Part shown: positions 946-19,651 of the stretch, piece after piece
Position numbering within the stretch: the first letter of the stretch is position 1
Layout: every line of letters begins with the position of its first letter
IMG/VR virus record: IMGVR_UViG_3300036760_000193
Coordinates: 1 to 27,394 of that record
Length of the DNA stretch: 27,394 nucleotides
Direction: 5' to 3' (one strand)
Origin: a virus
Lineage: Duplodnaviria > Heunggongvirae > Uroviricota > Caudoviricetes
Notes under the pieces: model-generated
The model's database searches: none
What the model saw: the letters and a program-made list of their open reading frames with translations, nothing else
Told to the model about the DNA's origin: nothing
Translations under genes and position numbers: made by a program

Positions 946-1615
946 GTTTGAATTCCTTTTTAATGAAAGCTTCTGCCGTCCAGGGCATATAATCTACAAA
1001 GAAGTCTAGGATTGTCAAGGCGTATTGCCGTATTTCCCATTGCGCGTGATCGTCACAGCGCAATTTTAAGAAGTTCATAAGTGCCCGTGCGTTCACTGTC
1101 CAATAGAACTCTGTGTACATGGATTGTGGGAGGATCATTCTGGCCTGTTCTTTTGCCACGCCCTGATCCAAAAGCTTTTTGTAGAAACCATAGATAGCTC
1201 TGTGGAAGTTCTCGAATTTGACGTAAAGCTCATTGGATTGCTGTTCTGGTAGGTTCTCGTACTTGTAGTTTTTCTCTTTCTGGGTACGGAAGTTGGATGG
1301 GATATAAAAATCATCTTGTACGACGGTGTAGCGGCCAGATACTTCATTGTAAGAAGACCAGCGGTGTCTGAACCATTGTCGCGCCACGAAGATTGGGCAT
1401 TTTATATGAAATCTAAAATTCACATGTTCAAAGGGGGTTTCGTGGTTGTTGTTCATCAAGAAACTGATAAGACGTTTGTCTTTCTCGTCCCCTTTTACAG
1501 TGCCACGATAGGAGACTCTGGCCGCTTGCGCGACTGTTAAATCATCTCCATCTACACTGTCTAGATGAACGAATCCTGAGTTTAAGACTTTACGCTGCTT
1601 GAATTGGTGCGTCAT
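935..1615 (-). CDS. thyX: Flavin-dependent thymidylate synthase ThyX
   Basis: ThyX signature RHRWSSYNEVSGRY; also AARVSY, HETPFEH, EQARMILP, NARALMNFLKLR, HAQWEIR. Confidence 0.97.
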   Translation of the reverse strand: MTHQFKQRKVLNSGFVHLDSVDGDDLTVAQAARVSYRGTVKGDEKDKRLISFLMNNNHETPFEHVNFRFHIKCPIFVARQWFRHRWSSYNEVSGRYTVVQDDFYIPSNFRTQKEKNYKYENLPEQQSNELYVKFENFHRAIYGFYKKLLDQGVAKEQARMILPQSMYTEFYWTVNARALMNFLKLRCDDHAQWEIRQYALTILDFFVDYMPWTAEAFIKKEFKREQ

Positions 1616-2792
1616 ATTTTGTCTTCTCGTCTATTACCAATAGCCGATCATACTCATACGGCTTTGGAGATTGAATTTTCTTAAAGTAATCCTCAACGAT
1701 ATCCGCTGGAACTATTCTTTCTCGACCTGCATTTCTTGCTTGAATTATATCTAACGGTAAATCAAAAACAACGATGGACACCCAAGCTCCGTGGTGTCGT
1801 GCCGTTTCTATTAATCTCTTGCGGAGTCTACGCGATACGCTGGTAGCATCCCAAATTGTATTTATTCTATGTTCCATGTTCTTACGCAACTGATGGAAGC
1901 AATTGTCATAAGCTTCTTGGTTACGCGACATGTCCATCATAGTTCCACATAGTTTAAGACGTTCTTCATCCATACTAATGTATGGTACATGTGGATACAA
2001 AGTTTTTACATGGGTAGTTTTGCCTGATCCAGGCGCACCAACCAAAATCATTAGTTCAAATGGAGGTTTTGACATAAGTCTAACACATTCCGCCATCTTT
2101 TTCTCGTCTGTCTCTTTCATGTTTCCGAATAGAACTTTCCATCGCGCCAAATTGTAGGCATGTTGAGGGATTCCTTTGTTGTTAGGAAGTTCATAATACG
2201 TGTCCCAAATGCCCAAGTCGATACAACGTTGCTTGAATGAGTCTAGATACCCTAGCGCGGTCTCTGCCGATTCACCTATGCGTCCAGTGAAGTCCGCTAC
2301 TTCAACGTGATAGACTTGCTCCGTATTAACTTCCAGAGACAGTCGCTTAAATCGGAGATCATCGCTGCCATCCTTAGCCATTCGCTTTGGATGACCATGA
2401 TATTCTACAAGACTCAAAATCCACTCTCTACGAGCGTACCCAAACATTGGAAAATGTTTTCTTAGGAATTCCCTTGCTTTCCAGACTCCAACACCCTCAT
2501 GGCCGTGCGCGGGACACTTACCATCAGCAGAAACAACAGTTGTTTCAGGTTTTCCAAAATCATGTAAAAGACCACCAAGATAAGTGCTTATACCGTCGTC
2601 TTTATTTTCCATTTGTACAGCAATCTCACGGGCTTTTTCCATAACCATGTCTGTATGAATAAGAACATTGCCCTCAGAGTGCCACTTCTTACTCTGTGGT
2701 GTATTTTCCAACTCAACAAACTCAGGGAACTGATCTTTGTACTCGAACAGATTCACTGGTTCTAGATTTAAGATTTTCTCTTGAAAACTCAT
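1590..2792 (-). CDS. HD-domain phosphohydrolase fused to AAA_33/polynucleotide-kinase-like P-loop domain
   Basis: PQSKKWHSEGNVLIHT, LLHDFGKP, HGHEGVG, YHGHP (HD); GAPGSGKTT Walker A, WDATS, RNAGRER.VP (PNK-like). Confidence 0.88.
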   Translation of the reverse strand: MSFQEKILNLEPVNLFEYKDQFPEFVELENTPQSKKWHSEGNVLIHTDMVMEKAREIAVQMENKDDGISTYLGGLLHDFGKPETTVVSADGKCPAHGHEGVGVWKAREFLRKHFPMFGYARREWILSLVEYHGHPKRMAKDGSDDLRFKRLSLEVNTEQVYHVEVADFTGRIGESAETALGYLDSFKQRCIDLGIWDTYYELPNNKGIPQHAYNLARWKVLFGNMKETDEKKMAECVRLMSKPPFELMILVGAPGSGKTTHVKTLYPHVPYISMDEERLKLCGTMMDMSRNQEAYDNCFHQLRKNMEHRINTIWDATSVSRRLRKRLIETARHHGAWVSIVVFDLPLDIIQARNAGRERIVPADIVEDYFKKIQSPKPYEYDRLLVIDEKTKYDAPIQAA

Positions 2793-7906: not shown

Positions 7907-8307
7907 TCGATTTCCCTCCGTTCCTTTTCCCAGGTTTCAAACTCATCCTTTGTCATGCCATAGGTTTCAGCAAAAGACCAATCTCGTTCAAGCGTATCTA
8001 CTTGATCTTTAAGCATGTCCATCATAATATTCCCAGCATAGGTATTAGCTGTGTGGATGTGAACGATTTTAGGGCGCAACTCTCTCGCCATTGCCAAAAT
8101 GTAAAAAACTACAGGCATATAGGTTTCGTTGCTCGTATGTTGCATCATCCCCATACCACGTAAACTTTCTACCTGGCAACAAATATCATGGTCGATGGAT
8201 ATTTCATCCACTGGAAAAGTGGCAAGTACCCTTATAGCTTTAGTGTTGGTACGTGCCAATTCCCACCCGTCGGGGCACCTGCGTATATCGTCTACAAATA
8301 ATTTCAT
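7903..8307 (-). CDS. Cyclic-phosphate-processing receiver-like domain protein
   Basis: MKLFVDDIRRCPDGW...ISIDHD...HTAN..G..M pattern of the REC-like family linked to RNA repair loci. Confidence 0.75.
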   Translation of the reverse strand: MKLFVDDIRRCPDGWELARTNTKAIRVLATFPVDEISIDHDICCQVESLRGMGMMQHTSNETYMPVVFYILAMARELRPKIVHIHTANTYAGNIMMDMLKDQVDTLERDWSFAETYGMTKDEFETWEKERREIE

Positions 8308-8906
8308 GATCCACTCCTGATTTGTCTTAATGTCTCTACAACTTCTAATTCTGAAATCGGCTTAAATCCCCACTGATCCACTCCTACATTTATCATCCCG
8401 TTTCTACGATCTTTCCATTTCTTTATCTTCCAGGCTGTATGAACGTGACCACACAGAAGCCAAGTGTGTCCATCATCCTTTGGCTGTCCTTGATCCTTCA
8501 TAACTTCATGATGTGCGTCTGGATCATCATGATCTTCAATATAGGGGTCAAACTCAATGTATGGGTATGGATAGTGAGACAACCAAAACTTCTCCCCGTT
8601 AATTTCGATCTGCAAATTATCGTGGGTTTCGTTAAATCCAACGTTCTTCATCACATTCTTATTTTTATCGTGATTCCCCTTAGTCAGAATCTTGTATCCA
8701 TTAAGCTGACTCAGAAGCTCTTTCATAACCTCTTGCTTCTTAAAAGCAAAATCACCAAGATGATAAATAGTATCGTCTGGTTTCACAATAGCATTCCAGT
8801 TGGCGATCATGGTTTTATCCATTTCGTCAGCCGTTTGAAACGGCCTATTACAATATTTAATTATATTCGCATGTCCGAAATGTGTGTCACTTGTGAAGTA
8901 TCTCAC
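8304..8906 (-). CDS. Calcineurin-like metallophosphoesterase
   Basis: SDTHFGH, HLGDFA, KGNHD, LSHYP, CGHVH, INVGVD motifs. Confidence 0.93.
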   Translation of the reverse strand: MRYFTSDTHFGHANIIKYCNRPFQTADEMDKTMIANWNAIVKPDDTIYHLGDFAFKKQEVMKELLSQLNGYKILTKGNHDKNKNVMKNVGFNETHDNLQIEINGEKFWLSHYPYPYIEFDPYIEDHDDPDAHHEVMKDQGQPKDDGHTWLLCGHVHTAWKIKKWKDRRNGMINVGVDQWGFKPISELEVVETLRQIRSGS

Positions 8907-9092: not shown

Positions 9093-9346
9093 ATTACTTC
9101 CTCCACTTTAGCTTTCGGGATTTTTCGTTTCCAAGTTCTTAAGACCATGTTAATCCCTTTCCGCGCCATGTCTACCTGACCATATAACGGGGAATAAATT
9201 ATCTCATCAGCACAGTGAAGTGCCCCGTTTCTTTCTGCATCTGCCTTTAATAGTCGCTGCACCGACTCAAGGACATTTGCTGCCTTTTCTAACTCTCTAA
9301 CGTAGTTTTCAATCTCAATACGTTGCTTATCTTCTTTCTTGTTCAT
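9089..9346 (-). CDS. Hypothetical protein
   Basis: 85 aa, ATGA overlaps. Confidence 0.6.
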   Translation of the reverse strand: MNKKEDKQRIEIENYVRELEKAANVLESVQRLLKADAERNGALHCADEIIYSPLYGQVDMARKGINMVLRTWKRKIPKAKVEEVI

Positions 9347-10464
9347 ATCTTTGTCTCTCCAGACACTCCTTCTCTCACCCCAATTAGATCGTACACTTTT
9401 TTGTCGTTTAATGGCTTACTATCAAGGAGAGAGAACATAAAATTTTTCAAATCAGATGGAACATTAGAATTAACCCACAGCGCAAAATCCTTGCGGGACT
9501 CTTTTGGAGCTTGATTAAATTTCTCATAACACTCATTAACCAAAAGTGTTCGCTGTTTCTGAAAATTCTCTATTTCAGACTCTACTTCGACACGGTATTC
9601 TTCTGGAGCCAAGGTGATAAGTTCCTTGGCTTGCCCAAGTCCCAAAGCTTCTAGAATGGATTTCCTAGACAACCTTGAAATGAACCTGTGGGCTGCAAGA
9701 TAATTGCTGCCTTTAATCTTGACCAAGCGGTCGGCAAATTTCAATACGTAACCCTCTTCCAAAACAGACAAATCTTTCACATTATCCAGTAGAGAATCTA
9801 GAGAACTGAATTGATAAGTTTTTGGAGAGAAGACACCCAATTCCTTAGCCAGCTTTTCGACTTCTGCGCTTCCCAATAATTCATTGGAATAACGATGACG
9901 AACTCCAATAAGATACAACCCTTCTGGGTAGCCTTTCTTTTTGTAATCAATTACGATTTGGAACTTAGAACTGATAAGCTCAAACATCAACGTGTATTTC
10001 GTTACAAATTCTTCGTTTTTCAAAGACTCTGGCATAATGGATGTAGCATATATTCCGTGATCTGAAGACATAGAACCTTTGGTTGTTAATCGGAATTGAT
10101 TTGGAACTCGTTCTTTGTAGAGAGTTAACATAGACCCATCTAGCTTTTCTGTCACTTCAAAAGCTCCAAGTTTTTCCAAAACTTCATATTTCGTTTCAGG
10201 CAGTTCATCTAGATTGAAGAACTTATCAAAGGGATGAGCAATAACTTCGTTGCCGTCAAGAATTAATCCTCGACACATGCGGTTAAAGGGGTTCCATTTT
10301 TTATCGAATTGTACTTCATTAGAATAATGAAGCATTATAGTGGTGGGAGTGAATGGAGAACAAGCGATTTTGACGCCGCTGCGTTCACATTCTGCTAATA
10401 GATTGTCATGCCACTTTAAGTCTGCGGCGGCAAGATAATGTTCTGGTGTATCGTATTGACTCAT
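9343..10464 (-). CDS. T4 Rnl1-like RNA ligase
   Basis: CRGLIL, HPFDKFFNLDE, motif I TEKLDGS, MFEL, EEGYV, LVKIKG. Confidence 0.93.
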   Translation of the reverse strand: MSQYDTPEHYLAAADLKWHDNLLAECERSGVKIACSPFTPTTIMLHYSNEVQFDKKWNPFNRMCRGLILDGNEVIAHPFDKFFNLDELPETKYEVLEKLGAFEVTEKLDGSMLTLYKERVPNQFRLTTKGSMSSDHGIYATSIMPESLKNEEFVTKYTLMFELISSKFQIVIDYKKKGYPEGLYLIGVRHRYSNELLGSAEVEKLAKELGVFSPKTYQFSSLDSLLDNVKDLSVLEEGYVLKFADRLVKIKGSNYLAAHRFISRLSRKSILEALGLGQAKELITLAPEEYRVEVESEIENFQKQRTLLVNECYEKFNQAPKESRKDFALWVNSNVPSDLKNFMFSLLDSKPLNDKKVYDLIGVREGVSGETKI

Positions 10465-11665: not shown

Positions 11666-11751
11666 TGGAGCACAGGAAGGGAATCGAACCCCCGACGGTC
11701 TTACGACCAATGCGTTTGCAGCGCACCCCCTTACCATTCGGGCACCTGTGC
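11666..11751 (-). tRNA. tRNA-Cys(GCA) with long variable arm
   Basis: GCACAGG/CCTGTGC, loop CTGCAAA, U73, CCA, V-arm GGTC-GTAA-GACC. Confidence 0.88.
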
Positions 11752-15306: not shown

Positions 15307-15400
15307 TGGCGGAGAGCAGAGGACTTGAACCCCAACCGGAGGATCACTCCGATCTATCTGTTTTCAAAACAGTAGCCAGACCATTCCAGCATTACTCTCC
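15307..15400 (-). tRNA. tRNA-Ser(TGA), 8/4 allo-tRNA-like fold
   Basis: 8-bp acceptor GGAGAGTA/TGCTCTCC, 4-bp T-stem, 6-bp D-stem with tetraloop, long V-arm, G73, CCA. Confidence 0.85.
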
Positions 15401-15620: not shown

Positions 15621-15698
15621 TGGTGGGTACGGAAGGACTCGAACCTTCAAGAACTCGCTTTTGAAACGAGTATGTCTGCCAATTGCAATCACGTACCC
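15621..15698 (-). tRNA. tRNA-Leu(CAA), short variable loop
   Basis: GGGTACG/CGTACCC, loop TTCAAAA, Leu-type D-loop, A73, CCA. Confidence 0.88.
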
Positions 15699-16581: not shown

Positions 16582-16658
16582 TGGTGCGAACGGAGAGATT
16601 CGAACTCTCACTAAGTCGCTCTTAAGGCGACCGACTCTGCCAGTTGGTCTACGTTCGC
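16582..16658 (-). tRNA. tRNA-Leu(TAA), short variable loop
   Basis: GCGAACG/CGTTCGC, loop CTTAAGA, V=TTAGT, CCA. Confidence 0.9.
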
Positions 16659-19187: not shown

Positions 19188-19280
19188 TGGTAGACTCACT
19201 CGGATTCGAACCGAGATACCGCCCTCATCTAGGGCTTAACCAGGTATAAGCTGGACGCACTGCCGTTGTGCTATGAGTCC
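19188..19280 (-). tRNA. tRNA-Ile(TAT) with long variable arm
   Basis: GGACTCA/TGAGTCT, loop CTTATAC, V-arm GCCCT-AGATG-AGGGC, A73, CCA. Confidence 0.85.
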
Positions 19281-19354: not shown

Positions 19355-19428
19355 TGGCGGAGTATACGGGTAACGCTCCCGTGCTGTCAGCTTGACAAGC
19401 TGGTATGCTACTATTACATCAATACTCC
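19355..19428 (-). tRNA. tRNA-Asp(GTC), aberrant D and T loops
   Basis: GGAGTAT/ATACTCC, loop TTGTCAA, G73, CCA; D-loop AATAGTA, T-loop AGCGTTA. Confidence 0.88.
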
Positions 19429-19574: not shown

Positions 19575-19651
19575 TGGTGGGCATAGAAAGACTCGAACTT
19601 TCAAAATTCCGTTTCTAAAACGGACGTGTCTGCCAATTGCACCATATGCCC
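19575..19651 (-). tRNA. tRNA-Leu(TAG), short variable loop
   Basis: GGGCATA/TATGCCC, loop TTTAGAA, V=ATTTT, CCA. Confidence 0.9.

Follow-up and report, generated by a model that had tools for sequence, protein, structure and literature searches.

In most bacteria, AUA is unique among sense codons in that it can be read only once the tRNA has undergone an essential modification. For alternatives to this lysidine route, the bottleneck is the recognition of the wobble base by the synthetase. One such alternative is the tRNA-Ile2 of Mycoplasma mobile, in which a gene-encoded UAU anticodon reads AUA without lysidine on an isoleucine-type body with A73 (Taniguchi 2013, PMC3575796). This tRNA is class I, with a short variable loop (4-5 nt), and M. 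mobile has solved the UAU problem through a changed IleRS (Arg865); with E. coli IleRS, by comparison, the charging of a tRNA-Ile2 that bears UAU reaches 1.1% of the level seen with the lysidine (LAU) form (PMC3575796).

The combination of a UAU anticodon with a long variable arm is also known, from the nematode nev-tRNA-Ile(UAU) (PMC3333845, PMC4300185) and from the allo-tRNAs (Mukai 2017, PMC5389517), but in these the body is of Leu or Ser type and the amino acid attached is leucine or serine. The allo-tRNAs in addition have an acceptor branch of 12 bp arranged as 8/4 or 9/3, G73 or U73, and a long D stem closed by a tetraloop (PMC5389517). More generally, class II tRNAs (Leu, Ser, Tyr, Sec) carry an extra helix between the anticodon and T arms that is sometimes read by the synthetase, being an identity element for SerRS and TyrRS; it is the length and orientation of this arm that matter, not the sequence of its loop.

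Hairpins that display a cognate anticodon and are recognised by the anticodon-binding domain of a synthetase exist outside tRNA, as in the E. coli thrS operator, where an anticodon-arm mimic is bound by the synthetase. Similarly, GlyRS binds an anticodon-arm mimic on the poliovirus IRES (PMC3384309). Both of these are regulatory mRNA elements, whereas the phage hairpin described here, if it is such a mimic, would be part of a tRNA and function in charging.

A tRNA-Ile(UAU) with a second anticodon-like arm

The window, that is, the whole 27,394-nt stretch that was analysed, comprises the first 27 kb of a complete phage genome. The tRNA gene of interest and its parts are as follows.

19188..19280, minus strand: whole tRNA gene, 93 nt, anticodon UAU (ARAGORN tRNA-Ile(tat); Rfam; minimum-free-energy cloverleaf)
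19188-19190, minus strand: encoded CCA
19191, minus strand: discriminator A73
19239..19255, minus strand: arm 1 (decoding anticodon arm), with 4 bp, one U.U pair and the loop CUUAUAC
19246-19248, minus strand: anticodon UAU, within arm 1
19236..19238, minus strand: 5' linker UAA, from arm 1 to arm 2
19221..19235, minus strand: arm 2 (the 'variable arm'), GCCC/GGGC stem with a closing U-A pair, 7-nt loop UAGAUGA
19227-19229, minus strand: GAU at the centre of the arm 2 loop
19216..19220, minus strand: 3' linker GGUAU, of the length of a class-I variable loop
19284..19354, minus strand: neighbouring ordinary class-I tRNA-Ile(GAU), lacking an encoded CCA, 3 nt upstream of the UAU tRNA

This gene is a real tRNA of isoleucine type for the codon AUA. 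Rfam model RF00005 matches positions 19191-19280 over its full length (1-71) with 53 bits (gathering score 29; E 2.3e-9), and the minimum-free-energy fold is exactly the five-arm cloverleaf. The acceptor stem has 7 bp and begins with a G1.U72 pair, the D arm consists of a 4-bp stem and a 7-nt loop with GG, the anticodon loop has both U33 and A37, and the T arm combines a 5-bp stem with the loop UUCGAAU. An 8/4 or 9/3 fold was ruled out by inspection and by the covariation of the 7/5 helices. The first-pass annotation, made from the sequence of the window, had called a tRNA-Ile(UAU) with a 23-nt variable region, which ARAGORN and Rfam (53 bits) bear out, and its anticodon loop CTTATAC, its A73 and its V-region (TAA-GCCCT-AGATG-AGGGC-GGTAT) are all recovered when the minus strand is read. 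It had also described all stems as intact; they do form in the minimum-free-energy cloverleaf, but the anticodon-stem pair 27-43 is U.U, and as this is the only exception the description was otherwise correct.

What had been overlooked is the GAU at the centre of the extra hairpin loop. The 23-nt variable region reads UAA / GCCCU-AGAUG-AGGGC / GGUAU, and its GAU occupies the same place as the anticodon in a true anticodon loop. The triplet displayed by arm 2 is thus the ordinary isoleucine anticodon, that of the major tRNA-Ile.

The combination of features sets this tRNA apart from the described systems. It shares the gene-encoded UAU, A73 and isoleucine-type body with the M. mobile tRNA, but differs in its 23-nt variable region with a GAU hairpin of 15-17 nt and in depending on the IleRS of the host. 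Compared with class II tRNAs, the phage molecules conserve the GAU of the loop and one stem pair, have a 3' linker of 5-6 nt and retain a class-I D arm; the 3-bp D stem and large D loop of a Leu or Ser class II body, and the G73 expected for Ser, are all absent from the tRNA of the window. Unlike an allo-tRNA, it has a 7/5 acceptor branch with both stems covarying, A73, and a D arm with a 4-bp stem and 7-nt loop. A full-text search of the literature found no description of a GAU-bearing variable arm or of a two-anticodon tRNA, and we found no published name for the two-arm phage tRNA-Ile, with its UAU arm and GAU hairpin.

The phage and its tRNA array

The virus record is complete, with 193,203 bp, direct terminal repeats and a G+C content of 40.8%, and nearly all genes of the phage lie on the minus strand. 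ARAGORN predicts 33 tRNA genes in the window, and Rfam finds the same genes and one more. Genes for PhoH, ThyX, a Fic protein and an HNH endonuclease flank the array, and a megablast search of the array against cultured phages returned a match to an HNH gene only. Three further genes adjoin the array.

1590-2792, minus strand: protein with an HD domain and a P-loop kinase
8304-8906, minus strand: calcineurin-like phosphoesterase
9343-10464, minus strand: Rnl1-type RNA ligase

Together, the HD-kinase, the phosphoesterase and the Rnl1-type ligase are consistent with a tRNA repair module. Inside the array, between tRNA-Trp and tRNA-Glu, lies an abiF RNA motif (RF03085; 15033-15069, minus strand), matched with 53.2 bits against a gathering score of 37.

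Several other tRNAs of the array are unusual as well. The three tRNA-Leu genes, CAA, UAA and UAG (15621-15698, 16582-16658 and 19575-19651, all on the minus strand), measure only 77-78 nt with CCA; their variable loop is 4-5 nt, the usual long arm is absent and the large Leu-like D loop is retained. Leu(UAA) genes of a similar type, 75 nt long, are present in other phage loci. The tRNA-Phe(aaa) that ARAGORN predicts at 15307-15400 (minus strand) is a misfold: with the anticodon stem moved by one register, the pairing improves and the anticodon becomes UGA (Ser), and the Rfam score of the gene is Sec-like (40.9 bits). A further tRNA with anticodon GUC (Asp) at 19358-19428 (minus strand; Rfam, 48.7 bits) is missed by ARAGORN and has an odd T loop, AGCGUUA, and a D loop without GG.

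A long variable arm is also present in the tRNA-Cys(GCA) at 11666-11751 (minus strand; U73), with the stem GGUC/GACC and the loop GUAA. Second anticodons as a general habit of the phage were considered and rejected, as this loop is GUAA and not GCA. The mismatch between the tRNA-Cys arm loop and its own anticodon indicates that the second-anticodon design is specific to the UAU tRNA.

A widespread phage family

The UAU tRNA of the window belongs to a large and widespread phage family. We scanned IMG/VR for the loop CUUAUAC followed by a long gap and a T loop, leaving the arm itself unconstrained, and obtained 60 distinct long UAU tRNAs (sample 1), every one of which has a hairpin with the loop NNGAUNN (60/60). 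The commonest arm 2 loop is CAGAUUA, the window's UAGAUGA comes second (6/60), and a few members carry CUGAUAA, the exact loop of the ordinary tRNA-Ile(GAU). A second scan with the loop CUUAUAA gave 94 candidate UAU tRNAs (sample 2), with the GAU hairpin in 71 and absent from 23. Among these 23, 13 have a different, 'rewired D-arm' architecture and a few combine the UAU anticodon with Leu- or Ser-like class II bodies (L347 and L401 among them). Another one, L349 (IMGVR_UViG_3300021091_000193), shows GAC in place of GAU at the centre of the loop of its variable-region hairpin. With 71 of 94 carrying the hairpin and 23 lacking it, the GAU hairpin is the dominant, yet not the sole, design among UAU tRNAs with a long variable region. 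Class-I UAU tRNAs are found in phages too.

The GAU hairpin is tied to the UAU anticodon. When phages were scanned in the reverse direction, with the loop motif CAGAUUA and a T loop, 109 of 110 long tRNAs had the anticodon UAU, and so did eight further uncalled genes with a compact D arm. In a control on the same loci, Leu, Ser and Tyr tRNAs almost never had AGAU in their variable arms. The same pattern run over 185,579 bacterial and archaeal genomes was dominated by chance matches, with 108 of 120 lying outside any tRNA, but the true hairpin cases were UAU in 5/5 (Ruegeria, a Rhodobacteraceae MAG, two Pyrinomonadaceae MAGs and one other). Four Ser/Sec matches in that scan were rejected, the motif being in the stem of the arm and not in its loop.

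A blastn search of cultured phages with the window's UAU tRNA gave no match, and the same search with a commoner family member matched Lactobacillus phages. The gene is unannotated in one cultured carrier, Lactobacillus phage LpeD, and annotated as 'tRNA-Ile' in another, Levilactobacillus phage ENFP1.

A sub-family with the GAU hairpin has a single base after the acceptor stem, a compact D arm with a 4-bp stem and a tetraloop, and an anticodon stem of 6-7 bp (L107, L113, L116, L039, L061, L062, L067 and L076; also L129, L130, L141, L153, L155, L160 and L178). These molecules are reminiscent of allo-tRNA or tRNA-Sec, several of them are missed by ARAGORN, and they may overlap with the UAU allo-tRNAs of Mukai 2017. 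Their D arm, a stem plus tetraloop, is unlike that of the window's tRNA.

Selection on the second arm

We aligned 43 family members, the window included, and examined covariation in the five helices. Standard pairs occupy 97.2% of the cells and compensatory changes occur in all five helices; none of 500 shuffles reaches the observed values, and no slid register comes close. Helix 3 (arm 1) covaries within the family, and helix 4 (arm 2) is 97% paired, with compensatory changes at 4/4 pairs, of which 30'-40' and 28'-42' covary through 4-5 pair types (primes denote positions of arm 2).

One pair of arm 2 behaves differently. C29'-G41', also present in the window, is retained in 58/60 members of sample 1 and 55/71 of sample 2, while the corresponding C-G at 29-41 of arm 1 is found in 25/60 and 9/71, i.e. 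in 13-42%. For comparison, other phage tRNAs have C-G at 29-41 in 10% of cases, and class-I Ile(GAU) tRNAs in 59%. A38' is found in about 75-83%. These observations show selection on arm 2, acting on the sequence of its loop and on one of its stem pairs. The resemblance to an anticodon arm is nevertheless incomplete: A predominates at 33' and U or G at 37', so that the loop of arm 2 has neither the U-turn base nor a possible t6A37.

Arm 1 is joined to the D stem by the canonical single base, and arm 2 to the T stem by a link of canonical length; across the family the arms are separated by a 5' linker of 0 to 12 nt (mostly 2-6), and the 3' linker, counted after a 4-bp stem, is 5-6 nt in 54/60 and 70/71. 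When arm 1 is deleted in silico, ARAGORN recognises a class-I tRNA-Ile(GAU) in 47 of 61 molecules, the window's among them, and when arm 2 is deleted it recognises a tRNA-Ile(UAU) in all 61.

The body itself is isoleucine-like. A73 is invariant (43/43), C4-G69 is present in 35/43 and U12-A23 in 38/43; the tRNA of the window has A73 and C4-G69, with U12-A23 inverted to A12-U23. The acceptor, D and T arms are nearest to those of CAU tRNAs (of Met or Ile2 type), which provide 22/60 of the best matches against a background of 8%, and the nearest neighbours are not Leu, Ser or Tyr tRNAs.

The meaning of AUA in the phage genome

AUA accounts for 872 of the 3,513 isoleucine codons of the phage (24.8%). 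To assess how these codons are used, we aligned the DNA polymerase and the class II ribonucleotide reductase, each against some 105 homologues of mostly 30-57% identity. At the 26 AUA sites in the two proteins the homologues have I, L and V at frequencies of 0.30, 0.21 and 0.09, a profile indistinguishable from that of 79 AUU/AUC sites (p = 0.49 for I). AUA sites differ from Leu sites, where I stands at 0.10 and L at 0.44 (p about 7e-4), from Ser sites (p = 2e-6) and from Met sites. They thus behave as Ile sites, which indicates that the genome is written for AUA as isoleucine, and this argues against a tRNA that inserts leucine or serine. Neither a class Ia synthetase (IleRS included) nor a TilS-type protein was found in the complete phage genome.

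The earlier proposal of a TilS-independent AUA decoder fits these results: the UAU is encoded in the gene and accompanied by U33 and A37, the complete genome lacks TilS and IleRS, and a codon that makes up a quarter of isoleucine codons falls at isoleucine-like positions.

A proposed division: one arm for the ribosome and one for IleRS

We propose that the two arms serve different partners, the UAU arm reading AUA on the ribosome and the GAU arm recruiting IleRS, a reading to which we give a probability of roughly 0.45. Arm 1, with a UAU anticodon that TilS does not modify, would read AUA, and the product would be a functional isoleucine tRNA. Arm 2 would take the place of the variable loop as a hairpin of anticodon-arm size, presenting GAU on a stem with the IleRS determinant pair C29-G41. 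As the IleRS of the host presumably accepts U34 tRNAs poorly, it may use arm 2 as a recognition element of the anticodon type. Slightly more tentative is the form that this division of labour would take, with IleRS reading the GAU hairpin, probably in an alternative conformer, and the ribosome reading the UAU arm; in one possible conformer, arm 2 instead of arm 1 would be stacked under the D stem. The outcome would be an AUA decoder for the phage that needs neither TilS nor an adapted IleRS, and the phage family would have solved the problem of poor UAU charging on the side of the tRNA.

The absence of a phage IleRS or TilS, together with the roughly 100-fold worse charging of UAU tRNA by the E. 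coli enzyme, would create a need for such an element. Moreover, besides the anticodon, the determinants of E. coli IleRS are C29-G41, A38, A73, C4-G69 and U12-A23 (PMC9976931).

Several observations weigh against recruitment of IleRS by the GAU arm. The main difficulty is geometric: in a normal class II tRNA the variable arm is directed away from the site at which class Ia synthetases bind the anticodon, so that the tRNA would have to rearrange before IleRS could contact the GAU loop. Arm 2 has neither the U-turn nor t6A37, of which the latter is a strong determinant for the E. coli enzyme; the tRNA of the window has A12-U23; about one quarter of the long-region UAU tRNAs in sample 2 do without the GAU hairpin; and phages also have class-I UAU tRNAs. 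In addition, the cultured carriers infect lactobacilli, whose IleRS is suggested to recognise UAU, to judge from the title of Uesugi 2022 as cited in PMC11571807.

Possible other partners for the hairpin

A possible, though in our view less likely, alternative is that isoleucine is charged through the body and the UAU arm, while the GAU hairpin serves another partner. The hairpin is clearly selected, and the partner may be drawn from a list of candidates: a modification enzyme, an anticodon nuclease specific for tRNA-Ile against which the hairpin would act as decoy or shield, a processing or stability signal, or an element that stabilises the fold. The imperfections of arm 2 as a mimic of an IleRS substrate, A33' and a non-A at 37', are in keeping with this alternative. 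So is the genomic setting, as the RNA-repair module (Rnl1-type ligase, HD-kinase and phosphoesterase) and the abiF motif in the tRNA array make a conflict over tRNA plausible in this phage. A decoy or a stability role, however, does not account for a hairpin found almost exclusively on UAU tRNAs, and leaves the retention of C29'-G41' and A38' unexplained.

Much less probable is that the arm tunes decoding so that UAU reads AUA and not AUG, as the first-pass annotation had suggested. Unmodified UAU does misread AUG on E. coli ribosomes (PMC3575796), and some safeguard would therefore be useful. We find no support for this role in the arm itself, since no sequence feature links it to the decoding centre, and the invariant GAU loop, A38' and C29'-G41' are determinants of a synthetase type, not ribosome contacts, and point to the charging enzyme.

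The other suggestion made earlier, that a synthetase that reads variable arms (LeuRS or SerRS) charges the tRNA and AUA is mistranslated, appears very improbable. It has precedents in the nev-tRNAs (PMC3333845) and in the allo-tRNAs, among which UAU is a predominant anticodon (PMC5389517); the variable region is indeed long, and A73 would be compatible with LeuRS. Yet A73 excludes a bacterial SerRS identity, which requires G73, and the 7/5 cloverleaf with its 4-bp D stem and 7-nt D loop is of class-I type. The closest bodies are those of CAU tRNAs, the Leu tRNAs that the phage itself encodes, at 77-78 nt, have no long arm, and the 26 AUA sites resemble AUU/AUC sites (p = 0.49) and not Leu (p = 7e-4) or Ser (p = 2e-6) sites.

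Finally, tandem arms resemble a duplication, and L104 and L112 even keep the canonical CUGAUAA loop together with an AGGUC linker, but a non-functional or non-translational relic of anticodon-arm duplication is very improbable given compensatory changes in all helices, A73 and an encoded CCA kept across very divergent sequences, and family members that sit in complete phage tRNA arrays.

Implications

Gene finders and annotators at present label the genes of this family as plain tRNA-Ile or miss them. Even if the hairpin has a partner other than IleRS, a fifth arm that is strongly conserved and widespread on a single tRNA species needs to be explained. If the GAU hairpin is indeed read by IleRS, the two-arm molecule would be the first natural tRNA with a separate anticodon mimic as an identity element, and would provide a new principle for tRNA identity that could be used in engineering orthogonal or codon-reassigned tRNAs. 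For the phages themselves, the two-arm tRNA would then be a portable AUA decoder, independent of both lysidine synthesis and synthetase adaptation, and would explain how AT-rich phages supply AUA decoding across hosts.
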